From the NCBI GenBank assembly GCA_008632985.1, contig QPGO01000062.1, positions 248,001 to 312,000 of the forward strand: a DNA stretch of 64,000 bases. The letters are read 5' to 3'. Position 1 is the first letter of the stretch; every line of letters starts with the position of its first letter. The notes beneath the pieces were generated by a model. That model was not told where the DNA came from. It saw only the letters and a program-made list of their open reading frames with translations, and did no database searches. The translations under genes were made by a program, and so were the position numbers. Source of the stretch: Psammoneis japonica. Lineage: Eukaryota. Below are positions 19,110-56,595 of the stretch, in pieces.

Positions 19110-19985
19110 CAATTGTGTCTGCACTTGCACATGCACGAGCTAATCGACCGCCGCGCCACCACTCCGATTTCTAATCTTGGATCGGAGTTGAGTCGTGGCG
19201 TGACTTTTGCACATGAAAAAAGACAAACAAGACACCACCCCGACATCCTCTTGGCTTTGTTTGTTCTTTTGTGATTGTGTTGCATCGTGTGCAGCACCAT
19301 GCACGCATTTGCACACGTGCTCTTCTTTGACATTGTTTCACACTCCCTGCTTTGTGAAGCTAAAAGCTTTTTGTTCTGTCAATTTGCAGAAGCTAAAATC
19401 AGCTCAGTGTGTTTCTTGGCATCCTCTGTTGAGGAGCGTGTGCCAGCAGAAATGACGCGCTGCCGCTCCAAGAATGAAAGATGAGGTGCAAATGCAAAGT
19501 GGCTCCTTGTCCTGCAGAGAATGATTGGCACAATCATTGCTTCACAATTGCACCACAGAGCTTGCGCTCAGAAATCTGCGCACAAATGTCAGAGGCTTGA
19601 GAGTGTCTCTGCCCTCGGCGCTGATGCCGCAGCTCTCAAAACATCTTTTTTTTTGTGCACCTGCTAGATCCCAGCTTTTTCCAACAGTGCACAACAAGAG
19701 GAAGAGACATGGCAGGAGAGCTGCACCTGCCTGTGCTGCCAGAAAGGAGAGACAGGACACAAAACCGTTGCCCGAGAGAGAGGAAAGCGGCAGCCGCTCA
19801 TCCAAAAAAAGACAGCACACTTCTTGCCATGAAGCTCTTGTTGTTGTTCTCTTTTTAGAGAAATTGTCATGCTCACAAATTGGGTGCATTAGATTTGCTT
19901 GTCCGCCACTGCGGTGGCTACCACAGCTGGAGACAATGCTTTGAGGTTCGTGAGCCAGACCATGATGTTGTTGTGTGTGTCATGT
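19110..19985. mobile_element. TpA-depleted block 2, ~0.9 kb unclassified relic between divergent genes
   Basis: Same composition as the other blocks, with residual TA mostly CTAA/CTAG/TTAG. No recognisable protein. Confidence 0.55.
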
Positions 19986-29713: not shown

Positions 29714-30811
29714 CGTTTTGTATGTGCGCGCGTTATGGGCGGGAGACGACAATATAATGTGAAATTTTCAATTATTACCATGCTATGCACCACGCATACT
29801 GAAGAATAATTGCGTGGGATTGAGAGGGTAACACAAGCGCACCCTCCATAGCCATTGAGTTCCTATCCTCGCTACTACATACGTCGCGGGGGGTCATCGG
29901 TTCTCTGTGCTTGCGTGTTGATGCCAGCACCTTACAGGCGAAGCAACGCACGACCTATACTTTGTCGGATCTTCCGCCGCATTTCTGGAGACTACGAATA
30001 TCTCATTATTGGAGCTATCGAATACTTTATGGCGACCGCACATCTATCCCGTTATTCTTTCGATCATCATATGCCGCACAAGAGAGGTCAGCAGGCGCAT
30101 GCAAATTGTACCTAAACGACAATCATAAGCTTACGCAGTTTCGCAGCTAACAAGAACTAGTGCACATTGCGACTGTTTCCTTCGCGCATATTATAAGACG
30201 GTATTGTAGCTCTCTCTGTCTCTCTAGTAGTAGAGGCTCACTTTGTCGCTAAAGAAGTGTCAACCGTACATACTCTCGATAGAGAGTACGGTAGATATAG
30301 AGGGGCATCGTTGTTCTCGATCCATGTTACAGTTCGCGGTTCCTGTCGCTTCGAAAGACTGTCCCCCTTTTGTCCTCCAAGCAGGATTGCTTAGGGGAAA
30401 CCGTTGCCGCTTCCGTTGATGTTGGAAAGACTTATTGGTCGCACAAACAGAGATTCAGTCGTATTTTCATGTTTCTGTGTCTAACTCACATGGTGTCCTC
30501 ATACTCAGGTACGTAATTAGGGGTATTTCAATAGCCCATTTCTTGTTTCTTTGTTTCCGTACCCTAAGTGGATAGAATAAAACGGTCATTCTCAACGACA
30601 TTGATGTTGTTGGTTGGTTTCGCCGACTCGCCTTTTTGAGTTTTTCAACCAAAAAACTTTCGGCTTCTCTTTATGTTTTAAGTCGAATAAGGGCGGGAGA
30701 ATGTTCCTCGAACTACGAATAACGACGGCACTGAGCTAATCATCTCATTGGTAACGTCAAGTTGCATGCGCTGAATCAAAAGGTAGAAAACGCACTTGCT
30801 GACGAGGTCAA

Positions 30812-33672
30812 ATGACAACAGAGAGCTCGCATACTAAGGAAAGCTCCTGGAACAGCATGTTTCAGCGACTTATGCAGTATAATGAAGAGCATGGCGACAG
30901 CTCGGTATATTCAGAATACGAAGAAGATCCAAAACTAAATCAATGGGCACAAGCTCAACGCATACTCTATAAGAAGGGCTCCTTGACTGCTGATCAAACT
31001 GCTAAGCTCGATTCTGTTGGCTTTGCATGGTCTGATGATTGGGAAACAATGCTCAAAGCTCTACAAACTTATAAAGCTGATAACGGGGATTGCCTTGTTC
31101 CACAGCATCACCCACAGCTGGGTTCGTGGGTAGATCGTCTGCGCACTGAAATGGACGAGAACCGTATTGATCCAGAAAGAAAAAGGGTACTGGACGAGAT
31201 TGGGTTTGTCTGGAAGGTCGCCGCTGACAACTGGGATGTCATGTATGGCCGACTGGAAAAGTACAGGGAGGTCCAAGGAAACTGCACCGTGCCCCAACAG
31301 TATGACGAGGATCCAGAACTTGGTAACTGGTAAGCAGAGACTCTCTAGCCGTGCGATACGTGTCGTGTCTCATTCGTGCATCTGCCGCGGCGCCTGCTGT
31401 AGCATTGTCACATGCATTCGTGCTTCGTCTAATCATTCGCCCTTTGCTTTGCTTCTCTGTGTCTGCACATCTACTATCCTGCACGCTATACCATTCACCA
31501 TGCATAAATATAAGGGTCGATATGCAACGATCCATGAAGAGCCAGGACAACTTATCCATCGAACGAGAGGAGAAGCTTAACCAACTCGGTTTCGACTGGA
31601 GCTTCACCCAAGAACCGTGGGAGGCCATGTTTGACCAGCTATCAAAGTATAAGGAAAGGAATGGTGACTGTCTTGTACCCGCAGGCCACGTTGAAAATCC
31701 TAAACTCGCAAGGTGGGTACGTGTCGTGTCTCATTCGTGCATCTGCTGCTGCGGCACCTGCTGCACGCAGCACAGTGTCTCATGCATTCGTGCTTCGTCT
31801 AATCTTTCGTCCTTATATTCTTTATCGCTTCTCTTTGTCGCACATCCCAAGGTGGGTGAAGGAACAACGAAAGAAGAAGAAAGGCATGTTGGATTCCAGA
31901 AAGAGCCGTCTCGATTCTATCGGCTTCATTTGGTCTGTCCCAGAAGCCCGGTGGGAGAGAATGTACAAAGCACTGGTAAGCAGTCCAATTCAAAAAGTCG
32001 CTCCTGAAGCAACCAGATATACCCCGTCTTAATATACTTCTTGTTTTCCTCGTTCCCTTATATGCGCCGCATCTTTTGACTGTCATTGCCCGCGCAGTTG
32101 GAATACAGACAAGTTCATGGCGATTGCAATGTACCGAAAAGATATCCTCCCAATCCTCAGTTGGGAAGGTGGGTGCACAACCAGCGCCTTCGTATGAACG
32201 ACACTCAAGCCGATCGTCAAGAACGACTCGAAGCACTCGGATTCTACGATGCCACCTGGGCTAGGAGCAAAAGGAGAATGACGCTACTCGAACTGGAGGA
32301 GTCCAACAGTGAACGCAAAAAAGCCACTGCATCCTTGTCTTCATCACAAGAAGGCAATCCTCCTCTAGGAAGACACGGACCATCTCAAAGTGATCAAGGC
32401 AGATCTATTCCGTCTGAAAGTCCTCGTAACTGTTTCATTCTTCCAGCTCCACATCGAGCATCAGATTCGACGGCCGCATCTGCAAACGTATTGAATCAAC
32501 AAGCCGATGATCCTCGACTCGATAGTTCACGAATGGGTCCTTTTCTTCTTCCTGCTCCACCTCTGGCAGACTCGACAACCGCATCTGCAACCACGTCGAA
32601 TTCATCACAATTCGGTGATCCCCACTTATTGGGCACATCATCTCACAACAGAATTCTTCTTCCAGCTAGACCTCGGGCAGACTCGACAACCGCGTTTGCA
32701 CCCATATCAAATTCAGCGCAATTCGGTGATCCCCACTTATTGGGCACATCATCTCACAACAGAATTCTTCTTCCAGCTAGACCTCGGGCAGACTCGACAA
32801 CCGCGTTTGCACCCATATCAAATTCAGCGCAATTCGGTGATCCCCACTTATTAGGCACATCATCTCACAACCGAATTCTTCTTCCAGCTAGGCCTCGAGC
32901 AGACTCGACAACCGCATCTGTAACCACATCGAATTCATCACAATTAGGTGATATCCACTTCGACGCTTCTCGCAACCGTCTTCTTCTTCCAGCTCGACCT
33001 CGAGCAGACTCGACAACCGCATCTGCTACCATATCGAATTCATCACAATTCGGTGATCCTCAATTTGATATTACTCATAGCCGCAGCATTCTTCCTGCTC
33101 CCTATCGAGCAGACTCGACAACTGCATCTGCTATCATATCGGATTCATCACAAGTCGACGAGTCTCAAAACCTTTCAAGATTTCTGCCACTCGCGCCCTC
33201 TCAAATCGGGCCACGACATCACCTTCCAGTGATGCGCAATACTCTTCAACGAGAACACCTTGGATTCATTCCTTCAGAAAACCCACTCTTGTCAGGGCAA
33301 GGCATTTTTCAAGTACAGCCTCCAATTTTGAACCAGACAAGAGCCGTGGAGGCGGATATGCCATACCCAAATTTGATGCTGCCCATACAAAGAACAACAG
33401 CATTGGAGCATCGTCTGCGTATACGTGAACTTGAAGCTTTACGTCACCATCAAAACATACAGCAGCAGCTGATGAGTGGCCTCCCATCCATGTATCCTGA
33501 CTACAACAACAATAACCTATTCCATAGCAACAGCCTGATCGTCGGGCAGCCCATCATTTTGCCTTTGATAAGTCCCAGAAGAACGGTGGCCGCAGAACCA
33601 ATTGACGAAATTCGCTCTGCTCCAGACGTACCATTCGATGGAGAAAGTGAAGAAGAAGAAGATCAAGACTGA
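30812..33672 (+). CDS. Helicase-associated (HA) repeat protein with repetitive Ser/Pro-rich tail; introns 31330-31514, 31713-31851, 31976-32097
   Basis: Five HA repeats (W..M...L..Y....GDC.VP......LG.WV..QR......LD.IGF.W). Three GT-AG introns restore the frame. Confidence 0.85.
32560..33150 (+). repeat. Coding tandem repeat, unit about 126-129 bp (42-43 aa), about 5 copies
   Basis: ADSTTA..PISNSAQFGDPHLLGTSSHNRILLPARPR is repeated; the central copies are nearly identical. Confidence 0.9.
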
Positions 33673-34010
33673 TGCAAAGATTACCAATGAAAGTTGGAAA
33701 GGAATAGCTTTTTCGTGGTATAAATGCTAGGGGGTTCATCTCCCGAAGAATGCTCTGCGGCAATAGACTACAGCACAGGTACGCATTCTTTCTGAGTTCT
33801 GAGAGAGATTCAAAGAACCGCACTCCTATCTATCATCTGATAGCAATGGGATCATTTTTGTTGCCAAGGCTAGTATGATAACATAATTACTAACTACTAG
33901 AGCTTGCGTTTTTGGAATTGTCATAACTTATTTTGGGCCTGCCATTGCGATGAGGTTTTAGTTTTTCCCGCCCTCGTGTCGCCGGACGACAGACAAACTC
34001 TTTTCAAATC
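33609..34010 (+). repeat. Copy 1 of a ~400-bp direct repeat (3' end of HA gene plus downstream DNA)
   Basis: Aligns with 38766-39165 (SAPDVPFDGESEEEDQD; tatctatcatctga; gcaatgggatcatttttgttg; gccggacgac). Confidence 0.9.
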
Positions 34011-34406
34011 TCAGGTCCGTCCGTCCGTCCGTCGCGAGACTCAATTTGCGATGGTGAAAGAACTCGCGACACGATGCGCGATGTTATTGATGGGATGCAG
34101 ATGGGATGGTGCGACTGTTGAATCGATTCGTGATTTACTGTGTGAAAGTCGAATCGATTCGGGAAACAATGTGCGATAGTTTTATGGACTCGAGACACAA
34201 ATGTGCGATGGTTGTCGATGATTCGTGCATTCAGAATCGCGGCAATGAGAGAGCCTTCTACTGGCTGGTGCTCCCGAACGGGAAGTGAGCCGCACGGAGA
34301 TTGAGTCAGCGATGAAAACGCGATTAAAGTCCCTTTTGCCTCACTGGTAGTTGGGGTTTTCCTTCAACTCATAAAATTTGCCGCCAGCAAAAAGATACTC
34401 AACACA

Positions 34407-35762
34407 ATGCGGTTTTTCTGGAGAGTCGCTTCCCTTTCTGCTTTACTCGCCATCTCAGTGCGAGGTGGGCGTAACGACAACGAAGAAGAGACAGGCCGCC
34501 CACCCGTTGACAACCTGAGAGGAGACAAGAACGGTGAAGAGCGCGACACTGAAATCATCGCCGAGGCCATGGGCGTTGACGTGTCCACGGCCAAGGAGCA
34601 CTTGCAGATCCAACGCAACTTCAAGGATTTGGTCAAGAAGCTAGAAAAGCATGAAGACTTTGCAGACTCCGTCATGGCAAAGAATCCTGGAGACGACCTT
34701 GAAATCTACTTTAAGACGAAGGTGCCCACTGAATTTGAAGAAGACATCAAAGCTTTCAAGAACAACAATAAGGTGAATGTGCAGGAGAAGAGCACCAAAA
34801 AATCATTGAAGGAGCAAGAGAAGGTGGCCGACAAGATCACAAAGTTTCTTGAAAAGAAGGGATTTTCAAACGTCGGGTATGTTCTCAGCGCTGGACATGT
34901 CCAAGTCTTGGCTGAAACTAAAAAAGGGGACGAAGACGACATGAAGGATGAAAAAGAGATTAACTTTGAGAAGTTAGAAAAGAAGGCCAAGAAGATTCTC
35001 CGCAAGCTTCTTGATGAGGACGAGCTTGACGGGGTGGGTCTCTTTATTTCTTCGGAGTCAACGGATCGAGACGACCACACTCGTGGAGGGCGACAGGTCT
35101 ATAGTTCAACCTCGGCGTGCACGTCAGGCTTTTCCGTGGTTGACTCGTCAGGCACTACGGGTATCGCGACGGCTGCCCACTGCAATGTCAACACGTACGA
35201 TACAGGGCAGGCGGGAGAGACCGATTATGCCATGACGCTCCAAGGAGAGCACAATGGAAGTTGGGGAGACTTTGAATGGCATACCACTACCCATTGGGAG
35301 CTTCCCGAATTTTGGGCGACTCCTGACGACTTGTGGTATGTCGTCAGTGTAGACTCTAGCTTTTCAAGGAATGATTGGGTATGTGTATACAGCCGCATGC
35401 GAGGACGTCGTTTCTGCGATCAGATTGAAAATACCAATATCAAACAAGGTGGCACGAGCCGTCTTGTTGCAATGTGGCACGACGACACAGTCAGTGGAGA
35501 TAGCGGCGGCCCGTGGTCATGGGGTTCTAATGCAGCTGGACTCGTGAAAGGTGCGAAGAAGGTAAGGATCGGCATGGTTCTCTTCTCTTTCCATGAAAAT
35601 ATTTGTTGAAGGGGAAAATACTAACCAGTTCTTTGCAATGTTGTTTGGTGACAGTATTGGACTTACTGCGGATTCTTGACGTGGTGCTACTCGTGGCACA
35701 GTACTTGGTCTCGCGCCTCTTACCTTCCCAACGGGTTAGGAGTCAGCGTCCTTGTGCGCTAG
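34407..35762 (+). CDS. Secreted S1 serine protease with long pro-region, alpha-lytic/streptogrisin-like; intron 35562-35654
   Basis: Signal peptide, CTSGFSV...GIATAAHC, WGDFEW and GDSGGPW. The intron GTAAGG...TACTAAC...GACAG gives the C-terminus YWTYCG...LGVSVLVR*. Confidence 0.85.
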
Positions 35763-36199
35763 AGTAGCATTGGCTTTCACATGGTTGAATGCTTGCGTCT
35801 GCTGCGTCAACAAAGAATCAATACATTTATACATCGCAACTGTGTGAGAAGCGGGCGTTTCTGTTAGTTTTCTTAGGATTTACTCATTTAGGTATATTTA
35901 ATTTTATTCTTTCACCAGATAGCCTGTATCGTCAAACTATTATAAGATGACTGACGTTACCGTAGACCTACAGAGGTTACAGAATACATCCATTGGAACA
36001 AGAATCGTCAAAAAGTCACTGGTCAGCTTTGCAGTTTGAGCAAGAGCCATTTGTTTCATCACAACCGAATGGCACGCCGCTGTTCCGAGTCATTGCAATC
36101 AACTGTGCCCCGACACCATACGGGGTGATCGTTAACATGGTGAGGTGTGTTATGATGCCTTGGATTGGTTTGTTATGTTGTGTTGATGCACATTCTGCA

Positions 36200-38800
36200 A
36201 TTCGCTTTGTGGTTTCTCGATGCCTCTCATCTCTCATCGGCATTTCTTGCATCGTGACAGGTGCGACCGGCCGGCACACAGAATCGGTGTTGTTGTTTTC
36301 ACAATCCTGTGGATGGAATCTGGTGGAACAGCAAATGAGTGAGCAAGCATGCAACACAGCAACACCTCTGTCATGCCAGAGTTGAGAGTGTCCTTTTTCA
36401 TGTTGTCACGTGGAGCACCGCCCAGGGCTTGAACAAGCTCCACAGTTTGCACACCCAACTGAGTTTTTTGTTCATGCATTTTGTTGTTTGCATTGCAACC
36501 ATTGACAACTGCATTGGCTTCAAAGCAGCCTGGTTTCACCCCTTTTTTCCCCAGCAATGCTGGATTTTCTGGGGACCTTCCTGCATGAGCTTCGCATGCA
36601 CTCAAACACAATCCACGACTTGCCATGTTTTTCACTCTCTTTTTCACGGTGACTTGGATCTTCTGGAACTTTCAACAGCCAATGGACACCTGCTGCACTC
36701 ACACAAATGTTGAAAGATCCAATTTCAATTTTTTTTTTTCAGCCAAAAAAAAAAAGCCTGTGGCACTGGTGAGTGAAAGTAAAAGCTTGCGCCATTGTGA
36801 GCTTTGCATGCTGGGCAGCTCTTTCAACAGGATTGCTGTCATGCTGCAGGCCATTTGTGCATTGGATGAACCCAAAGACAGAGGCAGTTTGCACTTCTTC
36901 TTTGGATTCTTAAGATCCTGGGGCTTGTGGCCATTGACAGCTGCTGCAGTGCAGGCACCCTGATTGTCATGATTGCGCTCGACAACCATCTTGAGATTCA
37001 TCTGGCATGCCTTGAAGTCAGATGGCCTCACTTCATTCCCTCCAACCAGCAGCTTCCTGACTTCAAGTCATGTGCTGGGTGTTTCTTTGGAGAAGTCTGT
37101 GGCCTTCTTGGTCTCAGCCACAGGCCCTCCAAGATCCAGAGCTTGTTGTTTGCCTTTTGGCAGCAGAGCACTGGATGCATTGATCACAAGCAAAGTGACC
37201 ATGTCCAGTGCACTGCTTCCAGCCAGCAATCTCAGCATGTGTGCGATTCTTCTGAGAGCATGAGCTGCTGCAGCTGTGCCCTTGGCTTTGCCTCCCCAAG
37301 GCAGGGAAAACCTTGCATCCATTCTGGGCACAATTGGAGGATGGCTTGACAAAGGCCCATCCTGTGCCAAAAGCAGCTGGCTTTTTGAGCAGATGTTGCA
37401 CATGTGAACCACCTTGTCTGCACCACATCCAGGTCCATCATTTGGAAGTGTCACAATCAAGTTGAGGTCTGCCAGGCCACCACACACTGGGTTCCTCTCA
37501 ATTCACCCATTGCCCCCAACTCATCCTGGGTTCAATGCAGGAGCAGTGCTCCCATCATGACATTCTGAAGGTGCCAGAGCTCTGTCTTGAATGACTCTTC
37601 CAAAGTTGCCCACACCCATGCATGCACTTGAGTGGAGTGGTGGAAACAGAGTCATCTTCAGATTGGCTTTGTTGAGCTTGCCAATGCAAGGTCTGCTGCC
37701 ATGCTGGCAGCAATGCTCTGTCTTGAGTGACTCTTCCAAAGTTGCCCACCCATGCACGCACTTGAGTGGAGTGGTGGAAACAGTGTCGTAATCAGATTTG
37801 CTTTGTTGAGCTTGCTGATGCAAGGTCTCCTGCCCCGCTGGCAGCAGTGCTGTTGCCAAGCCCCTCCTGTGGCTGTGGTGGCTGCCCCTGCACAGTGTGG
37901 CAGTCAAAGAAAGCCCTGATTGCATTGAGCTTGTTGTTGGCAAGGTGTGGGAAATGAACAGCGTCATTGTCTGTGACATCCTCAGCAAGTCCCTTGACCA
38001 CAGCATTGCCCCAATCTCAGATGGCAGCACCTGGAAAATGTTGTCAGCTTTTGCAAAACCCTGTGCAGTGACACATGCTTGTGCTTTGGACTCACACCCA
38101 ACCCCATTGAGGCAGGCATTGAATGCTGTGGGGGCAAGCATGGTGGTGTGGAGTGCAGCCTCTTTTGCCCTCCTGTGCACCCAACAGGCAACAAAAATGC
38201 CAGCGGCAAATGCAAAGCACACCTGAGCACATCTTGACAACGCAGTTCACACATCACATCTTCTGAGGACAGTCGGCCATTTTTGTTGTGCTTTCAGATC
38301 TTCTGACAGAAGAAGCAAGTCGTCACACAGCTCTTTGTCTGTGCCGCGGTCAACTCACAAAAGTGTGGCAGCACAGCTGGATGATCATGGACGTGCAAGA
38401 ACCAGTGCTGGAAATCCCATGAACATCAAGGTGCTCCACATGCAAAGTGCAGGATTGCTGGTGTGGGGAGTCTGGAATTTTCTTGGCGTGTTTCATGAAG
38501 CAGCCAAAAAGGTGTGGTGGCTGGCAAAAACGTCAAAAAAAATTTCAAGACTTTGCCTTTTGTGCCAGGTTGGGCGAGTTCCATTCACAACGTTGGTGAC
38601 GTGTTTGTTGTCGACACTCTCATCCAGGCAGAGACCATGTGTGGTTTTGGCACGGGGCCCAAATCGAAACAAAGACGAGACAAATGGCTCACACAACTGC
38701 TCAGGTTGGTCCCTGTGCCTGGAACCAGCAATTAAAGATTGGCGCATGTGTGCGCGCTTCTTTGGAATTCTCTCTGCTCCAGACGTGCCATTCGATGGAG
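36200..38800 (-). mobile_element. TpA-depleted block 3: decayed LTR-retrotransposon gag-like relic with a 136-bp tandem duplication (37579-37850)
   Basis: Minus-strand fragments VHFPHLANNKLNAIRAFFDCHT, GWATLEESLKT, GWAFVK and GGPVAETKKATDF resemble diatom retroelement Gag. About 4 TA by eye. Confidence 0.55.
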
Positions 38801-39165
38801 AAAGTGAAGAAGAAGATCAAGATTCATGAAGTCTGATGAGTCTGATACACAGATTACGAATGGAACTTGGAAAGAGGACTGTCGTTTTTCGTGGCGTAAA
38901 TGCCAGGGAGTTCATCTGTGCCGAAACTCTGAAGTGTGCTGTCCTTTCTCTGAGTTCAACTCTCTGAGAGATTCGAGATGTACAAAGAGCCGCAATCCCA
39001 CTGTATCTATCATCTGACAGCAATGGGATCATTTTTGTTGCAAGGCTAGTATGATAACTTAAGAACTCTAGCCATTGCGTTTTTGGAGTTGTCATTGTAT
39101 TAGCCCATTTTAGCCCAACTTTGCACGCTCTCTTGTTGCCGGACGACTGACAGATTTTTCAAGTC
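38766..39165 (+). repeat. Copy 2 of the ~400-bp direct repeat (orphan 3' end of HA gene)
   Basis: Aligns with 33609-34010. Several TA sites of copy 1 read TG, CA or CG here. Confidence 0.9.
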
Positions 39166-39279
39166 CGGCCAAAGATTGTGATGTGTGATGATCGTTTGAT
39201 GTGAGGAGAAGCCTGTTCTCAGAAGTCAGAAGTCAAAAGGCCTAGCTTATCAGGATAGTATCCATGTGCAATACATACA

Positions 39280-41094
39280 ATGTGGCCTTTCCACCGGGGA
39301 TCTTTAGAAAAAGAAAAGAAAAAACATTCAGAACATGGCGCCACAAGAAGTGAACAAACTCCAAAGATCTCTCACATTCGGGGACCTCCTCATCGTCGCA
39401 TCGAATCATCGCCAAATGAAACGGAGAAGAAAAAGCAATCAGAACATGGCTCCGCAAGAAGTGAACAAACTCCAAAGATCTCTCACGTTAAGGGACCTCC
39501 TCATCGTCGTATCGAATCGCCAAATGAAAAGAGAGAGCAACGTCAACCTCTGATTATTAGAGACGACTCTATCAAAGCACTTTCTTACCAGAAATCTCAT
39601 TCTTTGGGAGCATTTTCCGATGACGGGGGAAGCGTTGTGCAACAAACTCGAATCATTATTGAAGGAGACTGGTCTCGTCACAGCAGTCGAAAGGCGACGG
39701 ATGACGAGTCGTTTGCTTCTAGATCATATCATACTGGAATTCATACTCTGGAAAGTGTCAGCAGTTTGCTTACCGAGACGGCTCACAAAATTGTGGACAG
39801 TTCGTTTCGTCTAAGTGGAAAAGTGAGCTCTGTGCGAGACTTTGGTGGCACGGCTTCCGTCTCGAATGAAGTTTTCAACATGATTAAGAATCTTGTCGGA
39901 GCTGGGGCTTTAGGGTTGCCTTCGGGTGTTGCAGCCTTTGCGGATTGTAGCAGTGCGCTGGTGCCTGCGTCGATTGTACTGATTGTCATGTGCATTGTCT
40001 TTGCCTACTTTTTTCTCTTGATGGGTAGACTGTGCAATCTCACTAGAGCCGCAAGCTATCGCGAAGTTTGGGAAATTACAATGGGAGACTACTGCGCAGG
40101 CGTGGTTCCCTTAGCCATTATTCTCATGGCATCGCTTGGCAATCTGGCATACAGCATGATTCTTGCAGACACGACAAAAAGTCTATTGTTTGCTGCAGGA
40201 TTCACAGTGACACGGACGCAAAGTCTCATTGGTGTCACAGTCGTGGTACTATTACCGTTATGCTTGATCAAACATCTATCGGTTTTGGCGCCCTTTAGTT
40301 TTCTCGGACTGAGTGGATTGTTGTTCACAATTGGCGTCATGGCATTGAGATATTTTGACGGCACGTACGATCCCGACAGAGGAGGCAAGTATCTCGAGGA
40401 CCTGCCAAGCCACTTGCAACCATCCTTTGGTACAGTTGGGGCTTCAGGGGCCTGGAACAGCAAGTTTCTTATTCTCATTTGCATGACGTTCCAAGCTTAC
40501 TTTGCTCATTACAATGCTCCGCGCTATTTTGTCGAGCTCAAAAACAATACAATCAGACGGTTCACCTCTGTTGTTGCCTCTTCCTTTGGCTTTTCCGCCG
40601 CCATTTACATTGCACTCACAACATTTGGGTTCCTCACGTTCGGTGCGAACTGTGACGGCTTTATACTGAACAACTACTCGGACCACGATGGTCTTGCTTC
40701 ATGCTGTCGCCTTGCGATTGCCGTGGCCCTTGCCTTTACGTACCCACTCCCATTTATTGGCGTTCGTGACGGTATACTTGATCTTCTCATGGTACCCGAG
40801 TCCAAGCAGACATCTCAGAACCTGAATGTCCTTTCCGTGATTCTTCTGACTGTATTCACATGTCTGGCAATGCATTTTACAGACTTGGGCTTGCTCAATG
40901 CGGTTGGTGGTGGAGCTTTGGGCACTGCGGTAGTATTCATACTTCCGGCGCTCATGTTTCGTGGTGCCATACGACGTCTTGGAGTCGAGGCAACTATTCA
41001 GCAGAGGCGGGAAGTGTCGTTTGCAATCGGGCTCATGTGGATTGGGACGGCTCTCGGTGTCACTGGTACCTTCGTTGGCATCAGCATGTCGTAA
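39280..41094 (+). CDS. Amino-acid transporter (SLC38/AAAP family) with a 37-aa N-terminal duplication
   Basis: VFNMIKNLVGAGALGLP, LPLCLIKHLSVLAPFS, AYFAHYNAP and FILNNYS; about 11 TM segments. Confidence 0.9.
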   Translation: MWPFHRGSLEKEKKKHSEHGATRSEQTPKISHIRGPPHRRIESSPNETEKKKQSEHGSARSEQTPKISHVKGPPHRRIESPNEKREQRQPLIIRDDSIKALSYQKSHSLGAFSDDGGSVVQQTRIIIEGDWSRHSSRKATDDESFASRSYHTGIHTLESVSSLLTETAHKIVDSSFRLSGKVSSVRDFGGTASVSNEVFNMIKNLVGAGALGLPSGVAAFADCSSALVPASIVLIVMCIVFAYFFLLMGRLCNLTRAASYREVWEITMGDYCAGVVPLAIILMASLGNLAYSMILADTTKSLLFAAGFTVTRTQSLIGVTVVVLLPLCLIKHLSVLAPFSFLGLSGLLFTIGVMALRYFDGTYDPDRGGKYLEDLPSHLQPSFGTVGASGAWNSKFLILICMTFQAYFAHYNAPRYFVELKNNTIRRFTSVVASSFGFSAAIYIALTTFGFLTFGANCDGFILNNYSDHDGLASCCRLAIAVALAFTYPLPFIGVRDGILDLLMVPESKQTSQNLNVLSVILLTVFTCLAMHFTDLGLLNAVGGGALGTAVVFILPALMFRGAIRRLGVEATIQQRREVSFAIGLMWIGTALGVTGTFVGISMS

Positions 41095-41851
41095 CTCCGA
41101 GTGAAACTATAAGGCTATGAAGTGCTTCAAGTGCACTTAGCAGAAAATCAGAAGAGTTAGGGCTGTCGCAAGCAAAATACACGTATCAAGAGAATCTCAG
41201 AAGCTTCCATATGTTTGTCCCGACGTTGCCAACTCCCGATCAAGATCCAAGGTCGTTTTTATCAATGAGTTGAAGGGAATGCCGCTCGTTGTGCAAGCTT
41301 GCTAGGTGAATGAACTTAGTTTGGCTTCTAATGCAGTGTTGTAGCCTTTGAATTGCAGACATGAACCACGGTTGCAGCTATTCTCTACCGCTAGCTAGAG
41401 ATAGTGGCCTCTATCTCTACTCCCTTGGCGGCCGACCGTCTACCATCTAGCTTATTGTAGTCTACAGTACCGTACGACGGCAGACGGAACAGCGCAGAGG
41501 TTCACACATACAAGTTTCCGGGTGCATAACGGTTACTCAGTAAAAAACATGTTGTACCAGTAGTATGACACTTCAGATTTTATATTCATTAATTTATACT
41601 TACATTATTTAGTATCGAATTTTTTAATAAATATATATTATCTTCATTCTTTCTAAAATGTATCCTCTAGAGTGATTTTGTCGTACCGGTATTCCCGGGA
41701 CGAGATGCCGAAGCGGTCACAAATTCGAGATTTTCGACCGAATACCCGAATCTCCTCTTGCGATGAAAGATCTTGGCAGTCCATCAACAAACATACTCGT
41801 GAAAGCGAAACAATTCAGAAGATAGACTCCAAAAACTCGACAACAGCAGCT

Positions 41852-43237
41852 ATGATGCGAAATCGCACCCTTCCAGTCGTAAACGAAAACGCGGCTCAGT
41901 GTGATGATTTGTATCATGATAAAATCCCGGACGACCGTGAACCTGTAATGCGGGATGGCCGCCGTTGGACTCTCATGCTTCTGTTTGGCCCGTTTCCTTT
42001 CTTTTTGTGGTGGTTTGTTTTCTTTATGTACTTTGGACCATTTCATCAGTACAGTAACATCCAAAATGTCTCTGGCGCACGAACATCGTTGGTGAACCAA
42101 GAGTCGACGAATGGTGCGGCCCAGACGACCGAGTATCCAGGCGTAACGGGATCCTCGTCCCTCCGTAAGGTATCGCAAGATGAAAAGCTGTGGAATGATG
42201 AGAATCCATCGGTCTCGAACGGTTCCAACACTGCAGCTGGGGACAAGAAGTCCCAAAAGTCTAGGAGTAAATCCTTTACGAAGCAGGAAGACAAGCCTAA
42301 GGAATGGAGCGGCAACCAGTCGGACAATGTTGCTGCCACTGAAAATACCGAGAAAAAGCCTCAAACCGCTGAGAAAAGGCTTACGGTTCCGAATCTTCTC
42401 ATTGCGGGTGCACAAAAGTCCGGAACAACAGCCATCGCAGGCTGGATCAATCTCCATCGAAACGTTTGCAAGCCACTTGCGGTTAAGGATGGCAAGCCCA
42501 TCAAGGAAGTTCATTTCTTCAATGCTGACTCTAATTATGAACAGGGTATGGATTATTATCAAAAGCATTACAGTCATTGTACGGAGGAGACAAGCCTTCT
42601 GGTCGATGCAACTCCTGACTATCTCCGCCAGGCAGAGCGTGTGCGCCAAGGATACGACAAATTGGGCGGAAGCTATGCCAAAGACTTGAAAATCTTGATG
42701 ATCTTGAGAGAACCAGTCGCACGAGAATATTCATGGTTCAACCACATGGCTGTTGACGTAAGGAAGCCCAATCCACCAAGATATGCGAAACGTGTTTTGA
42801 ACAGGGACAAGAACGACGGGTCCTTCCTCTCGTTCAATGAGTATCTCGACAAATCCGTTTTTCCTGAATTGGACTCTTCCTTTGGGCACTACAGCAAGTG
42901 GATTAAATCATGGATGGATAACTTTGACAGAGACCAAATTCTCATTCTATCGTATGACGAACTCTCGAAGGATCCCGTTTCGGTTCTTAATCGCCTTCGA
43001 AAGTTTGTCAATCTCGAAGGAAAGGTGAAAGATATAATAGCGGTTCACAACAAGAGGTCGGGAAAAGGTGAGGATGTGCCTACGCTCACTTGCAAAGCGA
43101 AGGAACGGCTAAATGAGCACTTTACGAAATACAACCAAGAACTCTATGAATTGCTTGAAGCAAGCCCTGGTCCCGCTTTTGAACAACGACCGTTTCCCAA
43201 GTTTGAGCAATCAACATGTGAAGCTCAAGATAAATAA
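41852..43237 (+). CDS. Type II membrane sulfotransferase, paralog of 14097..15314
   Basis: TM segment, IAGAQKSGTT, KEVHFFN, DATPDY and LREPVAREYSWF. Start codon uncertain (41704 possible). Confidence 0.85.
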   Translation: MMRNRTLPVVNENAAQCDDLYHDKIPDDREPVMRDGRRWTLMLLFGPFPFFLWWFVFFMYFGPFHQYSNIQNVSGARTSLVNQESTNGAAQTTEYPGVTGSSSLRKVSQDEKLWNDENPSVSNGSNTAAGDKKSQKSRSKSFTKQEDKPKEWSGNQSDNVAATENTEKKPQTAEKRLTVPNLLIAGAQKSGTTAIAGWINLHRNVCKPLAVKDGKPIKEVHFFNADSNYEQGMDYYQKHYSHCTEETSLLVDATPDYLRQAERVRQGYDKLGGSYAKDLKILMILREPVAREYSWFNHMAVDVRKPNPPRYAKRVLNRDKNDGSFLSFNEYLDKSVFPELDSSFGHYSKWIKSWMDNFDRDQILILSYDELSKDPVSVLNRLRKFVNLEGKVKDIIAVHNKRSGKGEDVPTLTCKAKERLNEHFTKYNQELYELLEASPGPAFEQRPFPKFEQSTCEAQDK

Positions 43238-43289
43238 TCATTATCAGCGAATCTAAGATTTTTATATTGCAGTTGGTAGTCTAAGGTTG

Positions 43290-43500
43290 ACCTCTACTTA
43301 GCTTTAGGTAGGCCTAGTCTATAATCTGCTTCGCGGAGACTTGAGACTTCCCTCTACTAGAGTAGCTAGTCTCTAGTCGTAATGTAGGCCCTACACGGTA
43401 CCGGTACACCTGCTGGAAAGAGTAGGGCTCTACTCTCTCTAGCTAGAGTAGAGTAGTAGTAGCTACTCTCTACTCTAAGTAGAGAGGTAGGTTATCGGCT
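43290..43500. repeat. TAG/CTA-rich palindromic low-complexity tract
   Basis: ctactctctctagctagagtagagtagtagtagctactctctactctaagtagagaggtag; core AGTAGCTACT at 43458-43467. Confidence 0.8.
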
Positions 43501-43880
43501 CTCATCCTTTCCCCAGCACGGCCCACGGTGCGTTTGGGCCAGTTTGGAAGTTGGCTGCGAAACCAACGGGACAACGGGAATCTGGGTATTCCATACACGA
43601 ACATTTTTCAGAATTGCGTCGTTGCATGTAAAGTGTAAAGATGCCATTGCTCACATCAACGATAAGATGATTTCTATGAAGCTTGTAAAAAGAGAGGGAA
43701 TCACAAATTTCAATCCGATTGCCGTGAACGTTCTCTTGTCTGCGTGTCTTTTGTTGAACTCGAGGATCGCGATCCATCAGTACGGAAGATCGTCGTAGAT
43801 GCCACGTATTACTGGTCGTGGTGACGTTCAACTGGCACATCGTGCCGAAGGCATTTTCTGTTTGAATTTCCAACGAGACG

Positions 43881-44739
43881 ATGAAGGTTGCCGCTCTTAC
43901 TCTCGCCTTGGTCGGCTCCGCCGCTGCCTTTGCCCCCGCTTCCCAGAAGGTGTGTTACAAAAAGTTGAAAGAAAAGTTGCGTCGTTGGAGAAATTCAGTT
44001 TCGTCTTTGGCTCGATGCACACGCTTTGTCACCACATAGCACCCACTGTTGATCTCACATGTTTACGTGATTTTCGTGATAACGTAGGCTTCTTCGGCTG
44101 TTGCCCTCAATGCTCTCAAGGATGAGGTTGGTGCCACCGCTCCCCTTCCCGGTTTCGATCCCCTTGGTCTTGCCGATCTTGGCTCTGACGCCACCTTTGC
44201 GTGGTTCCGCGCTGCCGAGCTCAAGCACAGCCGTGTTGCCATGCTTGCCACCACTGGATACCTTGTGCAGGGCGCTGGAATCCACTTCCCTGGACAGCTC
44301 AGCCACGATGTTTCTTTTGAGTCCCTCTCTGCTATGAAGCCCCTTGATGCCTGGGGTGCCGTTCCCGAGGCCGGTACGTATCCTTTCGTCGTCTTCTCCT
44401 TTTGTGCTGTTTGTAGGCGCGCAGTATGATTCTCATGTCCGTATGTATATACCCTGTGTGTGTGTCCTTCATGCAGGCAAGTGGCAAATCATTGGGACTA
44501 TCTTGCTTGCTGAGATCATCACGGAGTCCAAGGGAACTCACTACACTAAGGGAGGTGACTTGCCCACCATTGTTTTCCCTCCGATCGACTTCTCCTCTGT
44601 TGATGAAGAAACTTTCAAGAAGAAGCGAAATTCCGAACTTAACAATGGACGTCTTGCCATGATTGCCATCATGTCCTTCTGTGCCGCTGCCAACATCGAG
44701 GGATCTGTTCCCGCACTTATTGGTAACCCCGCTTTCTAA
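43881..44739 (+). CDS. Fucoxanthin-chlorophyll light-harvesting protein; introns 43950-44087 and 44374-44476
   Basis: MKVAALTLALVGSAAAFAP presequence, FDPLGL, FRAAELKHSRVAMLA and ELNNGRLAMIA. Confidence 0.95.
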
Positions 44740-45049
44740 ATTCACACTGCTGAAATAATGAAACTATAGACATTGGGTTGACACAACAAAAACCGTGTTT
44801 CCCATTACAGCAGCTCTAGCACTCCTGTTTTGAAGCATTTCTTGTTTGTCATGAGAACACAAAAAAGCCTGGCGTCGAGGAAACACCAACTTTTCTTCGC
44901 GAAGGGCTGTGAACCAACGTAGCATGCTCGTCGAAAACCCATTCACAGCTCTTTCTTTACGTGCAAAAGGAAGAGTGAGAGTGTTTCGAGGTCACAATAA
45001 GCAGTTCGTAGCTAGCTTTCTCTGTGCTACTTGATGGAAGGTCAGTCAG

Positions 45050-48000
45050 ATCTTCCCTCTCAGATGTCTGCCTGGCCAATCGGCTGAAGTCAATTTGAAT
45101 TTCATTGACCTCCAAGTTGCAAAATGCAAATCCGCAAGCATCACACTCATTTCAGTGATGGTGAGTGGAGACACCATGGCTCAATTTGGCCACCATTTTG
45201 TCTCCCACACCACCTCAAGACCAACAATTGGAGCATGTCTCTTGGTGTTGTGGTCATCAACAGCATTCCTTCCCGTGAATTGATTCCCTTGAATTGATTG
45301 TGTGGCCTTGGGGCAATCAAAGTTCTTCACACATGTGCCACCCCCCCCCCCCCCTGCTCACCTCCTTGTGTTTCCCCATTGTCTCATTCTGACACTTGTT
45401 TGTTCATCCTGCAGGTCACCATGATGAGACTCACCACATGGTCTGGCTCAGGTGATGTGAAAAGGCACATCTTTCAATGCACTGGTCCAAGCGCCAAAGT
45501 CACGGACTTCTTTGTCATTTGAGTGACTCCCCTCATGTCGTCACCCTTGACTGGCTCATGCCAGAATCACCACTTTTTCATCAATGCCACAGCAAAAATC
45601 TCTTTCTTCCACAGCTCAGTGGCATCTTTGAGAATGCAAAGCTGCCATCAAACACCATGCACAAGCTTTGTCATGCCATGTCGTTTCATTGCTTCAGCCA
45701 CAGAAGGAGGCCAACAGTTGTGCCCTTGTCGCCCAGATCCAAAGTTGACATTCATGCAGATGATCCTTTCCCTCCACAAGCTCAGCAACATGCACAAGAA
45801 TCCCAGAGATCACATTGCACATGATGCAGTGCTTGTTTGCAAAAGGCAGCGGCTCTTGCAAGGTGCAAGCACAAATCCCAAGCATGTGGTGTGTTTGTTT
45901 GTCCACACTGACATGGACACATCCAGATGGGACCACCACCCTGGCTTGAAACTCCCTGTGTGCAGCACTCCTCTTGCTCCACATGCCAACTGAAACACAC
46001 ACTTCCCAAAATCTCTGTTTGGGTGTTGGAGCAGAATGTCTTTGGCACATCACAAAGCCCTGAGAATGTTTTGTGCTCAAATCAAGCCCTCCTGTGCTCA
46101 TCACGTGCACTTTCCCAAAACTGCAGAGGTGTGCCGCCAAATTTGCTCACATCCTCTTTGACCAAAGCTCTTGATGCCATGTGCCAGCAAGAGGCAAGCA
46201 ACCTTGGGATAGAGCGATGATGCATCTGAACATTTTGGGTGAGGCGTGTGGCCAATTGCAACACCTTGGCATGGCATTTTTTGGTTTGGCAATCTCCTTT
46301 TGTGGTGCTTGCAAGTTGTGGCCAGTGACAAATTTGCTTTCTGGGCAAACCACAGAGAGCAATGGTTGCATTGCCCTTGCACAGCTTCCACTGCCTGATC
46401 AATGCAAAGCTCCGGCAAAGTGGAAAAAAGACTTGGTGCTTCATGCACTCTGGGATGTTGCGGCGCACCACAGAGCCCATGGCACAACACATGCTGCAGC
46501 AGTGCTGCAAATGCATGCCATGGAGTTGCAGGGGGGGGGCTCCCCAGCAGCTTGGCAAATCAGACATTTCAAAAGAGACCAAGCAAGCAATTGTGCATGT
46601 GGCACACACACTGTGATTTGCCATCAACGCACACACACAAAAAGACACATGATGGCAGCACATGCGCAGGCATGTGGTGGTGACATGAAAATGGGATTTG
46701 AGAAACTTTGGTGCAGCCAGTTCAGTGTGGGTCTGATCTGAAATGCAAGCCAACAACATGACTTTTGACACCCTGCCACAAGTCCATCTGACAGTTTGTG
46801 CAGCAGATTTAAAAAAAGGATGAGACAAGTTGCCTTTGATGTCTCCAACTCCCAGGAGTTAGAAGAAATGTCATGGGTGCTTGCATTCTCCCAATGACCA
46901 ACAACCAATTGTGTGGACAAAGAGGATTTGGGTGTCAACAACTGTGCTCACATGATCTGTGCAACAAAGGCAGTTAGATGGAGCAACATTGATCTCCCAG
47001 CAATGTCATGTCATCATCCACTGCAAAAAAAATGACAGTGCTTGCATGGCAAGAAGGCTTGCCCAATGTGTTGTGTCTTGCCCAAAAAAGAGGATGTTTG
47101 TGCTTGGACATTTGGAAAAAACCTTGGATTTTGGTCTGTGCATCTCTGCAAATGTGAAAAACTGTTCCTCTGGGGGAACATCTGGGCAGCAGCAGCACCA
47201 GCTGATGGAAAAGCTTTCCTCATTTCTGGTGGTGCAAAGGGAGCAGCAGGCACGCCAAAGTTTTTTTCTGGGGTGATGTGGGCAGCACAGAGTGCAAGCT
47301 GCATGTGTGCAAAGAATTCATGGTGCAGCAAGGGCAGCTTTGCTGAAGCCTCCCTGTCTTCAACATCTCTGGAACAAACACAGCAGACTTTGCAGGCTGT
47401 TGAGGTGCAGCGTTGCACAGAACTTCCAGGGGAAAAGGAGGCTTTTGCCATGACAGTGCACGCGGCAGGGCACAATGTGGGAAGAATCTGAAAGGGCAAA
47501 ATCAGTCAAATGGAGGCTGCTGTCATGTTTTGGACATGTGGGATGAGTTTTCAAGAGTCAGCAAGATGATGGCTGGGTGGAAGTTGCTGCTGTTCTCTCT
47601 GTCTTTCTTGAAACAAATTAAGTTGGCTTTTTGTTGATTCATGTTGGAGCTCTTGAGCACATCAATGGATGAAAACAAAGGCAGGACACCACAGCCATTG
47701 TGCCATTGGCACAAACACACAAATGCAGAAATTTTGGAGGGTCAATTTTTGTCAGTGTGCAATGTGCAGCCACTGACAAGAGCCAACGCATCACGGCGAC
47801 GTGTCACAGCCTTTAAATGTCACAAAGGGCGTGACAAAACAACCTTTTGTCTGCATGCATGCTGCGTTGAGGGGTTCGAAACCCTGAGTGGGAGTTGTCT
47901 GCAGCAACGTTGATCACTTTCGAACGCGCAAAACTCTGTGCAGTTCTGCACGTTCCTTCGCACACACCCACACTGTTCCGCCAAAACCGTGCAGTGTCAG

Positions 48001-53501: not shown

Positions 53502-54810
53502 ATTTCTGTCAGATTGACAATCTCACTCATTTTCATCCATTGAGCATTCATCATCATCGAAAATCTTTGACAACACACACCATTGGCGGTGGAAGTGCAT
53601 GTCCACCTTCTTTGCTGCCACCTCAACAATTCTGACTGGCCACCCGAATCCCACGAGTTGTGTGGTCACTTCGTTGGCATTGCCGAACACGTTGGTCATC
53701 ACATGACATTCAAGATTCTTTCTGACGATGCTCAGAAGATTCTCTGCCGCTCAAATGTGCATTCCGCCTGTGATCCGTCCACTCCCAACCTGTGTCTTGA
53801 TCCTCCTGATGAGGAATCTGCTGAACCCGTCATCAAATCCCAACATGACTCCAAGGATTCACCAGATTCTTCAGATGGAGGGGTGATCAGGATGCCCAAA
53901 ATGCCGGTCTTTGACCCCAAGGACATCATTGGATGCACCTTCCTGCCTCATGAAGCCACAAGAGGATGGACAATGCCACAGAGCTCGTGTTGTCAAAGCC
54001 GTTGAGGACCATGGTGACTGGAAAATTGGAGACAACCCCAAACTGGTCAAGTTCATTTGCTCTGTCAACAATGGTGGGTGCGAGGAAGTCCCAGCCTGCA
54101 ATGACATCATGCACCACATCAAGCAAGAAGACGAGGACACTGCCCTCTGGAAACTCCGATGCATGGCATCGCAAAAAGGACCATTGCAACCTCATGATCC
54201 ATCTTGGAAAGGCTCAAGCTACAATGTCATGCTTGAATGGGAGAATGGGGAGATCATCACGTCTGAACCCCTTGCCATCATTGCCAAGGACGATCCTGTC
54301 ACCTGCGCCATTTGCACACGCGAGCACAGTTTGCTTGAGACCAATGGCTGGAAACGCTTGTTCCGGACTGCAGCTCTGTGCCAGAAGAAGCTGTTCCACA
54401 TGGCCAATCAAGCCAAGTTGCGCTCCTTTTGCACTGTGCCACAGTGCAAGTGCGGGCATGAAGTGCCCCGGGACTGCAAGCACGCCTTGGTCCTTGATGA
54501 GCGCAATGGCAACCGCAAGTGGGGAGATGCAACAGAGCACGAGATGACTCAGCTTGATGAGTGTGAGGTCTTCCATGACTGTGGACATTGCAAGGATTCC
54601 AGCGCTCCACAAGGACACAAGAAGATTCGGGTGCATCTCATCTGCGACGTTGAACATGACAGATGGCACAAAGCAAGGCTTGTTGTCAACACGGACACCT
54701 CACAGATGCCCTGTCAACAGTGTCCATTCCAGAGTGGTGTCTCTCCACGGCCTGCGAATGATGATCTTCCCAGCCAAACTCAAAGAACTGGAGACTTGGG
54801 CTGCCAACAT

Positions 54811-55203
54811 GACGGGTTCCAGTCCTAGGTGGGACTCCGTGTGACATTGGGCCCGTAGAATTCTACGTGCGAGCTCCGTAGTACGAGAATTTAATTAATG
54901 TATACATTTATCTTCAACATCAAATAAACTGCCAAGTTTGTGGTACAATTATGCCTCTTGCCACTCGACGTTTTTGCAAATGCGCCTGCCCTACGCGATT
55001 CTTAAGACATTATAGAATCGCGCTGTAACAAAAAATGTCAAAAGTTGTTGGACGGATCGCTCAATAAGTGTGCCGTAAAATGACACAAAATATCGAAAAA
55101 ATCACGTAGAAATCTACGTGCGCGACATACGACGTGGTTCAAAAAACTGTCGATGTCACAGTTCAGTAGTGCGAGGTCCCACCTGCTAGACCTGGAACGC
55201 GTC
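54811..55203. mobile_element. MITE inserted in the copia RT
   Basis: Imperfect TIRs: gacgggttccagtcctaggtgggac versus reverse complement gacgcgttccaggtctagcaggtgggac. TSD is ACAT (54807-54810 and 55204-55207), or CA if the ends are 1 bp longer. Removing it restores WAANIGGACLEA. Confidence 0.9.
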
Positions 55204-56595
55204 ACATTGGGGGTGCCTGTCTTGAAGCTGCAACCAAGGAGAAACTGCACATTGCAGCAGGCCCCAAATCAGGTGAGCTGGAAGGACACATCCTTGTCAT
55301 CCACAAGGCCTCACACGGACTTCGCAGCTCTGGCCTCAGATGGCATGAACACTTTGCCAATTGCTTGCATGCCGAGGGCTTCTTCCTGTGCAAAGCCAAA
55401 CCCAACATCTGGCTGTGTGGGAGTGATGACCACTGCAAGCATGTGGCAGTGTGTGTGGATGACCTGGCCTTTGCCGTGAAGGAACCCCAGGCTTTTGCAG
55501 ACACTCTCATGTGGAGAAGTGCAAGTTCAAGCTCAAGGGCACTGGACCATTGGAGTTCTGTCTTGGTTGCAACTTCACCTGCGATCCAGATGGCGCCCTG
55601 TGCCTTGCTCCTCATGAGTGCATTGAGTCAAGGTTGAAAACTGTGCATGCCTCTTTGGAGAGAAGCCCCACACTGATGTGCTTTCAACCCTTGACAAGGG
55701 AGACCACCCTGAGCTCAACACCTCCGAATTGCTCAAACCGGAGGGCATCCACCAACTCCAATCCTTGATTGGTTCCCTGCAATGGGCTGTGTCTCTTGGT
55801 CACATTGACATCACTGCAGCTGTCATGCCCTGTGCAGCTTCTGTGCAGCACCCCATCAAGGCCACCCAGACCGCGCCAAATGCATCCGCGGATTCCTCTC
55901 CAAGATGCGTCATGGTGCCCTCCGAGTGTGTGCCGAGGAGCCCAGCTGTTCGGACCTTCCCAAGCCCGTGTGTGACTGGGCCCAATCTGTGCATGGGGAG
56001 GCAGAAGAGCTGCTCCAGCAAGATGCACCCTGGCCACTTGGCAAATTTGTCACCATGACACACTGCGTTGATGCGAACTTGTTCCATTTCATGCTCCTCG
56101 CTGGACGCTCTGTCACCGGCATCCTTCATTTCCTCAACAAGTTCCCGGCTAATTGGTTCTCCAAGAAACAAGCAACAGTTGAGACTGCTGCACATGGACC
56201 TGAGTTTGTTGCCACAAGGATGTGCGTTGAGCAGATCATTGATCTGCACATCACTTTACGTTGCCTTGGCATCCCCATTCATGAAACATGTCACATGTTT
56301 GGGGACAACAAGTCGGTTGTGGACAGCGCTGCCACCCCGCACTCCCAAGTTGCACAAGTGACACACCACCCTCTCATTCCATCATGCACGTGAGGCAATT
56401 GCTTCCAGTTTCCTCAAGTTTCATTTCATCGAAGGTTCCCGCAACCCTGCTGACATCCTCAGCAAGCACTGGCTGGGGTTGCTCCCAGGTCTGGAACCTC
56501 CTTCGTCCTCTGATGTTTTGGAACTTTGATCCCGAGGCTTTCAACCAATCTGACCTTGAATCCATTGCTGTCAACCCCTCAAGCAAACTGGGGAG

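Follow-up and report, generated by a model that had tools for sequence, protein, structure and literature searches.

A 64,000-nucleotide stretch of nuclear DNA from the diatom Psammoneis japonica (assembly GCA_008632985.1, contig QPGO01000062.1, positions 248,001 to 312,000 of the forward strand; the window in what follows) contains blocks from which the dinucleotides TpA and CpG have almost vanished, and the question these raise is whether the process behind the loss ends where a block ends or crosses into host DNA, which decides whether it is a repeat killer only or also a source of directed change in repeat-adjacent genes. The end of a gene with helicase-associated (HA) domains is present here twice, once in clean surroundings (copy 1) and once, as a diverged duplicate, against one of the blocks (copy 2; Table 1); a host sequence in these two situations is the right natural experiment, although with just one such pair it is not large enough to decide the matter. 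An initial annotation had taken the differences between the copies to give the direction of mutation and to suggest spreading from the block edge over about 300 bp. Our results give good support to a genuine process in the blocks, one that works in place, hits both strands and has the direction assumed in that annotation. The duplicate is real as well, and an edge effect is plausible but unproven: the chance that a small one, of the TpA branch of the process, reached copy 2 at this one border seems to us to lie just below even.

Dinucleotide profiles (1 kb and 200 bp) delineate four stretches nearly without TpA and CpG, in which TpG/CpA is almost doubled. Observed/expected (o/e) ratios in the blocks are 0.02–0.04 for TA, 0.13–0.21 for CG and 1.7–2.0 for TG and CA, as compared with 0.58 (TA), 0.98 (CG), 1.15 (TG) and 1.19 (CA) in host DNA; ApT and GpC are not depleted, GC content is unchanged at 0.48–0.50, and TG and CA counts are nearly equal block by block (1098/1015, 239/232 and 1013/970). 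Block 3, the one beside copy 2, is unusual in having margins where TA is lost and CG largely kept, with TA and CG o/e of 0.02 and 0.13 in its core (36290–38320; 239 TG, 232 CA), 0.20 and 0.89 in its left margin (35986–36289) and 0.04 and 0.57 in its right margin (38321–38765). Contigs of the source sample, aligned to the window at an identity of at least 80% and with a single-copy depth of about 60, indicate that block 3 is single-copy except around 36138–36304, where 3–9 contigs align, so that the left margin is repeat DNA and not host flank. Short-read contigs agree with the window across block 3, one of them (X1 record 2) covering 36240–39373 with 5 differing letters, and this agreement means that the composition is not an assembly artefact.

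The TA steps that survive in the blocks (n = 64, with block 4 taken as 45029–57251 minus the insert at 54809–55205) tend strongly to be preceded by a pyrimidine and followed by a purine. TTAA (15), TTAG (12) and CTAA (11) account for 38 of the 64, against 180 of 1582 TA steps in host DNA, and the blocks have lost ATAT and GTAT, which host DNA has in plenty; this suggests that the process has a four-base preference. Low TA alone is no sign of it, as a host coding stretch at 34001–35000 illustrates, where TpA o/e is 0.28 with normal CpG (1.08) and no excess of TG/CA (1.12). As a separate observation, 7 of the 11 differences between the window and short-read contigs in the single-copy parts of blocks 3 and 4 (36623–50914) are CG/TG, and host stretches adjoining the blocks show 0–2 differences per short-read contig; the CG/TG differences may reflect either allelic CpG decay or base-calling errors at methylated CpG.

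Repeats inside the blocks record how the changes were made, most of the differences between them being double changes of neighbouring bases. A site at which one copy of a repeat reads CA and the other TG is the outcome expected when each copy separately resolves an ancestral TA or CG, so that such swaps place the changes after the repeats had formed, in the chromosome and on both strands. We count 8 swaps among the 30 mismatches of a direct repeat pair resembling long terminal repeats (LTRs) in block 4 (53262–53502/56596–56843), 5 among 13 in the pair 47757/48047 and 1 among 13 in the pair 37579/37715, which makes 14 swaps in 56 mismatches within blocks; there is none in the 145 mismatches outside them, 92 of which come from three host repeats and 53 from the comparison of copy 1 with copy 2. 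Among the 28 of 95 multi-copy rows that were examined, 7 have TG/CA in the window where CG makes up 0.73–0.99 of the depth, 6 have CA/TG where TA makes up 0.08–0.73 of it, two row pairs are TG/CA swaps, and 2 are of the reverse kind, with CG in the window. The LTR-like element further combines a TA o/e of 0.03–0.04 with a CG o/e of 0.35–0.46, from which it follows that TpA loss outruns CpG loss.

That the gene end recurs beside block 3, as had been annotated, is borne out by a blastn comparison of the window with itself, which aligns 33609–33924 with 38766–39095 at 72.7% identity over 344 columns (E = 3.7e-44) and, with softer scoring, 33609–34010 with 38766–39165 at 69.9% over 428 columns (E = 2.8e-52); a global alignment of the copies gives 360 aligned columns with 53 mismatches, plus indels. 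The junction between block 3 and copy 2 is bridged by the independent short-read contig mentioned above, and short-read contigs list no variant letter inside either copy, so the junction is not a misassembly. Copy 1 has a host-like composition (23 TA, 15 CG and 49 TG+CA in 402 bp) and has been spared, as the initial annotation held, its ancestral status being an assumption only. In copy 2, which lies in the upstream region of an amino-acid transporter gene, just 5' of 39259, TG+CA is higher at 60, and the first 215 bp hold 3 TA as compared with 9 in the matching part of copy 1.

Nine of the 23 TA sites of copy 1 are kept in copy 2; five well-aligned ones (33629, 33705, 33719, 33728 and 33841) and two poorly aligned ones (33929 and 33959) correspond to TG, CA or CG, and the remainder differ by transversion (3) or lie opposite gaps (4). 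The four changed sites listed in the initial annotation are all confirmed in the alignment, 33705 being an addition, and so are its retained distal sites, with aggctagtatgataac at 39043–39058 the same as in copy 1. Four of the changes, at 38786, 38880, 38904 and 39018, are compatible with a leak and come without CpG loss; copy 2 retains 9 of the 15 CG of copy 1, the others comprising a single CG-to-TG change (33980), 2 transversion differences and 3 sites opposite gaps. The TA/CG difference at 33719 is impossible for a strictly TpA-specific process, since it needs a change of both bases of one TpA. Once one base of a TpA has changed, no TpA is left on either strand, and, as we reason, simultaneous hits on both strands would segregate into TG and CA daughters; CG is the more likely ancestral state at this site. 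From copy 1 to copy 2, A:T-to-G:C transitions stand to G:C-to-A:T transitions as 17 to 9 (p = 0.08), and 8 of the 17 fall in TA steps where a fraction of 0.198 is expected (p = 0.01, post hoc), with 2 of 9 in the reverse direction. In favour of an edge effect, too, transition-type TA differences run 5:1 at well-aligned sites and 7:2 overall, and transversion-type ones, which include three TA of copy 2, are balanced at 3:3.

The best-surviving alternative to an edge effect is ordinary old divergence, at about 15% mismatches and many indels, in which chance or the usual G:C-to-A:T bias acting in copy 1 produced the differences and copy 2 was never touched; we take this as a serious possibility, though one that falls clearly short of an even chance. 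It agrees with binomial tests of the transition-type TA differences, which are not significant (5:1 at well-aligned sites, one-sided p = 0.11; 7:2 overall, p = 0.09), with the reverse site at 33673, where copy 2 has the TA in a well-aligned position (a second, at 33934, is poorly aligned), with the reading of 33719 as ancestrally CG, with the retention of all but one of the CG aligned without gap or transversion, and with the sharp borders of other blocks described below. Ordinary divergence accounts poorly for the concentration of A:T-to-G:C transitions in TA steps, for the TA deficit in the block-proximal 215 bp and for the higher TG+CA count of copy 2.

Several points weigh against an edge effect irrespective of what replaces it, beginning with the reverse sites just named. 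The significance of the TA asymmetry is weak and its numbers are small; without the process-incompatible site 33719 it is 4:1. The site set is post hoc, the pair having been picked because of its look, and the polarity of the changes is assumed, with G:C-to-A:T changes in copy 1 looking alike. The direction of mutation claimed in the initial annotation is better shown by the block process, in which TA gives TG and CA, than by the duplicate. As regards an outgroup, contigs of the source sample show no extra depth from paralogues on the copies (59–77 versus about 60), two exact-pattern scans of metagenome contigs gave 0 matches each, and the closest relatives of the transporter, at 72–81% protein identity, are too distant for non-coding alignment.

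The same holds for the gradient. Well-aligned changed TA sites lie 20, 114, 129, 138 and 252 bp from the junction and retained ones 89, 131, 238, 242, 281, 284, 289, 294 and 303 bp from it, which gives p = 0.03 in a rank test, and p = 0.30 when the poorly aligned changed sites at 330 and 350 bp are added, so that the gradient disappears when distal sites are counted in full. A near-identical patch (Table 1), whose sole substitution is the TA to CA change at 33841, holds 6 of the copy 1 TA sites and 5 of the 9 retained TA, including the retained distal sites of the initial annotation, and stands in contrast to the 70–78% identity of the copy pair as a whole. Constraint or gene conversion could account for it. 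Such a patch would preserve everything, TA included, and the apparent fade is therefore confounded; outside the patch there is no gradient, and the proposed decay over about 300 bp is not supported. In copy 1 the patch also spans position 33866, where an RNA-like contig stops, and a conserved 3'-end signal or a gene-conversion tract is possible there.

Nor do other borders behave as a spreading process would have them. Counted outward in 100-bp bins from six of them, defined by CG alone, TA numbers 14, 26, 23, 14 and 18, where 24.9 would be expected. The first of these bins is low (empirical p = 0.035), yet the fourth is equally low; for TG+CA the first bin has 97, as compared with 86.8 (sd 8.1). 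TA occurs 7, 56, 13 and 13 bp from CG-defined edges and reappears before CG at two borders, and block 1 has sharp borders, with TA stopping at 3380 and CG at 3387, and CG back at 12927 and TA at 12983. Within block 4, the insert at 54809–55205 is unmutated and host-like (26 TA, 27 CG; TA o/e 0.87, CG o/e 1.42), which means that the insert is a young one or else that the process works in episodes or finds its targets by sequence and not by position. Spreading as a general property, which the initial annotation had implied, is not evident in the window, and a general 300-bp rule is unsupported by its other borders. As to whether the target is foreign or repetitive, block 4 is partly very high-copy and carries a weak reverse transcriptase (RVT_2) match (E = 0.004), and most of block 3 is single-copy, its frames containing no Pfam domain and no recognisable transposon protein, the last of which counts against an edge effect. 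The Pfam scan made to identify the blocks, covering 88 of the 89 listed frames of at least 110 amino acids (with frame 38227–38799 scanned through the longer frame 38227–38829), returned RVT_2 and a spurious EII-Sor match and nothing else, and the protein atlas gave no usable match for frame 37524–38246.

Copy 2 may alternatively have entered as part of the block 3 unit itself, by 3' transduction, capture or as insertion filler, and represent its weakly targeted end, in which case there would be no spread into true host DNA; we think this unlikely. Homology to the HA gene begins exactly at the block edge, at 38766, with nothing upstream even in purine/pyrimidine-coded alignments that ignore transitions, and blastn finds no upstream HA gene sequence beyond the far side of block 3. 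Sharp borders elsewhere are in line with such an origin, as is the occurrence of TA-lost, CG-kept DNA within repeats too (the multi-copy left margin of block 3 and the LTR-like element). Against it, only about 40% of the proximal TA have changed, whereas blocks have lost more than 95% of theirs, copy 2 is host-like over its distal 150 bp, and we found no element termini, target-site duplication or A-run at 39165 (39150–39170 for the A-run). The start of homology at the block edge, the lack of upstream gene sequence and the lack of an A-run fit a copy at the DNA level that was produced, or cut short, as the block came into being. For a processed retrocopy of the HA mRNA end, the terminal poly(A) tract that would be expected is absent near 39150–39170. 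We also considered block 3 as a hypermutated HA gene body, for which purine/pyrimidine-coded alignments and 26-mer seeds gave only the known duplicate and chance-level matches, and a third, inverted copy at 36059–36076, an 18-nt inverted match without blastn support that we treat as chance.

[quoted passage not shown] The segment is indeed duplicated within 5 kb, and diatoms are described as carrying DNMT4 enzymes related to fungal RID (PMC9998398), but copy 1 is unaffected, which already contradicts this explanation, the chemistry is opposite, with TpA destroyed rather than created and GC unchanged, and block 3 is single-copy at the identity used. The initial annotation had preferred chromatin-based over pairing-based targeting, and the sparing of copy 1 does counter a RIP-like rule; the gradient, even if taken at face value, does not favour chromatin, because pairing-based RIP is itself described as leaking with a distance gradient (PMC2973834). 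Editing of RNA or cDNA by ADAR- or APOBEC-like enzymes before integration, with host flanks never hit and the differences in copy 2 unrelated, would suit the very sharp block borders and the RVT_2 match in block 4 (below the Pfam cut-off) but is hardly credible, as TG and CA are enriched equally and the 14 CA/TG swaps need each strand to have been hit independently once the repeats were in place, which contradicts it for the repeats tested.

Returning to the edge effect, the picture begins with the block process, which removes the two self-complementary pyrimidine-purine steps, converting TpA to TpG/CpA fast and to completion and CpG to TpG/CpA more slowly, and which works on integrated DNA and on both strands, usually ending within tens of bases of the block edge. 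Since TpA is self-complementary, sequence cannot separate A-to-G from T-to-C changes; the TpA branch would most simply be the deamination of adenine, on one strand or the other, that has been proposed for Bigelowiella natans (see below), and the CpG branch deamination of 5-methylcytosine. The duplicate would be a DNA-level segmental copy with its left breakpoint at the right edge of block 3, possibly produced by filler or repair synthesis or by capture when the block arose, and we infer that the block-proximal 150–250 bp of copy 2 probably received a low dose, of the TpA branch only. The full picture, of a diatom defence that is directed at TpA, acts in place and on both strands, erases RTAY and leaves YTAR last, runs faster than CpG decay and leaks 150–250 bp at some borders without CpG loss, is one that we offer tentatively and that is, in all its parts together, rather more likely wrong than right.

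Table 1. Coordinates of the blocks, copies, sites, genes and repeats in the window.
Feature	Position	Strand	Remarks
Block 1	3388-12926	.	strong; TA o/e 0.04, CG o/e 0.21
Block 2	19200-19903		weaker
Block 3	35986-38765	.	2.8 kb, abuts copy 2
Block 4	45008-57251	.	composite
Copy 1	33609..34010	+	last 21 HA codons and ~340 bp of 3' flank
Copy 2	38766..39165	+	diverged duplicate abutting block 3; 14 TA, 13 CG, 60 TG+CA
TA site	33629 / 38786		TA / TG
TA site, newly added	33705 / 38880		TA / TG; well aligned
TA site	33719 / 38895		TA / CG
TA site	33728 / 38904		TA / CA
TA site	33841 / 39018		TA / CA
Reverse site, newly added	33673 / 38846		TG / TA; well aligned
Reverse site, newly added	33934 / 39101		TG / TA; poorly aligned
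Near-identical patch	33827..33882 / 39004..39058	+ / +	54 of 56 columns identical; 1 substitution, 1 gap
HA-domain (helicase-associated, PF03457) gene	30803..33672	+	Pfam E 1.6e-45 (30803-31333) and 2.6e-14 (32080-33672)
Amino-acid transporter gene (Aa_trans, PF01490)	39259..41094	+	Pfam E 4.9e-26; diatom homologues
LTR-like direct repeat pair	53262-53502, 56596-56843		30 mismatches in 237 aligned columns
Unmutated insert	54809..55205	.	~390 bp; 26-29-nt terminal inverted repeats
Very high-copy repeats	47675-48341, 52344-53000		summed contig depth ~49,000 and ~14,000 vs ~60 for single-copy

The HA gene closes with an open frame at 32080–33672 whose C-terminal end is SAPDVPFDGESEEEEDQD*, and its tail contains a tandem repeat of roughly 111-bp units (32423–33168) rich in ADSTTAS; a second tandem repeat with a 111-bp unit lies in coding frame at the start of the transporter frame (39307–39529). 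The transporter's closest protein matches are the 72–81% identical relatives noted above, and those in Amphora, Seminavis, Nitzschia and Thalassiosira are 47–53% identical. A second sequencing run (X2, recorded as 'DNA?') skips 35559–35653, 43947–44086 and 44372–44476, all with GT..AG ends, and so behaves as RNA and marks three introns in neighbouring genes. One of its contigs covers 33001–33866, the end of the HA gene and part of the flank, but its end at 33866 cannot be read as an mRNA end, and the contigs do not fix the mRNA 3' end. Block 3 and most of block 4 carry no contig of this run, but absent cover is not evidence of silence. An Rfam scan of the window gave no family at gathering score.

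In block 4, both members of the LTR-like pair begin with TGACAGG, a purine-rich run (GGGGAG) precedes the second, and the RVT_2 match lies between them (55170–55634); we saw no target-site duplication at the pair, which on these sequence features is probably a decayed Copia-type LTR element. The unmutated insert interrupts this element just upstream of the RVT_2 match. The two very high-copy families are less CpG-depleted than their surroundings, with 11 CG in 47801–48000.

Among known systems, retroelement editing by ADAR and APOBEC shares with the diatom blocks the deaminase-type transitions in mobile elements, and ADAR prefers a 5' U, corresponding to TpA. Such editing is strand-asymmetric and precedes integration, whereas the diatom blocks were hit on both strands and their repeats diverged after duplication. 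The CpG decay of methylated transposable elements (TEs) produces the same CpG to TpG/CpA changes in repeat blocks, and diatom TEs are reported to be CpG-methylated by DNMT5a, with the RID-related DNMT4 in some diatoms (PMC9998398); this explains the CpG half only and leaves the TpA loss, which is faster and more complete in the diatom blocks, unaccounted for.

The closest precedent comes from Bigelowiella natans, in which giant-virus and virophage DNA, once integrated, is hypermutated at TpA. Our literature search found TpA-directed hypermutation of integrated DNA only in the 2026 preprint on that organism, and none of the papers found deals with diatom repeats that lose TpA and CpG together. 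The preprint describes mutation-accumulation lines in which the mutation rate of two integrated viral regions exceeds that of the remaining genome about 1000 times; the changes, nearly all of them A-to-G or T-to-C and invariably at TpA, arise in only some of the lines, and the authors propose an adenine deaminase (bioRxiv 10.64898/2026.01.13.699255). The two systems have in common 1) the conversion of TpA to TpG and CpA, 2) action on both strands of integrated DNA, 3) confinement to particular chromosomal regions, of putatively foreign or repeat character in the diatom, and 4) clustered windows poor in TpA and rich in CpA and TpG. They differ in that B. natans is a chlorarachniophyte and the diatom a stramenopile, in that the diatom blocks are saturated (TA o/e 0.02–0.04, against 0.45 given for the nucleocytoplasmic large DNA virus region of B. 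natans), and in that the diatom blocks show coupled CpG loss and a flank bias of the surviving TA (38/64). Should the same process be at work in a diatom, and to saturation, a wide distribution across the algae would be probable, with effects on the decay of repeats, on the prediction of genes within them and on dinucleotide statistics.

Leakage of RIP, the other close parallel, was reportedly found in Neurospora by Irelan et al. in 1994, as cited in the paper on Leptosphaeria maculans. In the latter fungus, RIP is described as leaking into adjacent single-copy DNA with a dose that falls with distance (PMC2973834), and this leakage is a directed source of change for fungal effector genes. The likeness lies in a repeat-directed mutator that reaches neighbouring single-copy DNA in a distance-dependent manner. 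RIP, however, makes C:G-to-T:A changes, mostly CpA to TpA, and leaves AT-rich DNA, whereas the diatom blocks lose TpA and stay near 48% GC; it is triggered by duplication and hits both copies, whereas here copy 1 is untouched; and the diatom leak is unproven and would extend over at most 250 bp. If true, the leak would alter signals that contain TA, either upstream of nearby genes or in their 3' regions, and stramenopiles would have a counterpart to the leakage of RIP that is opposite in its chemistry.

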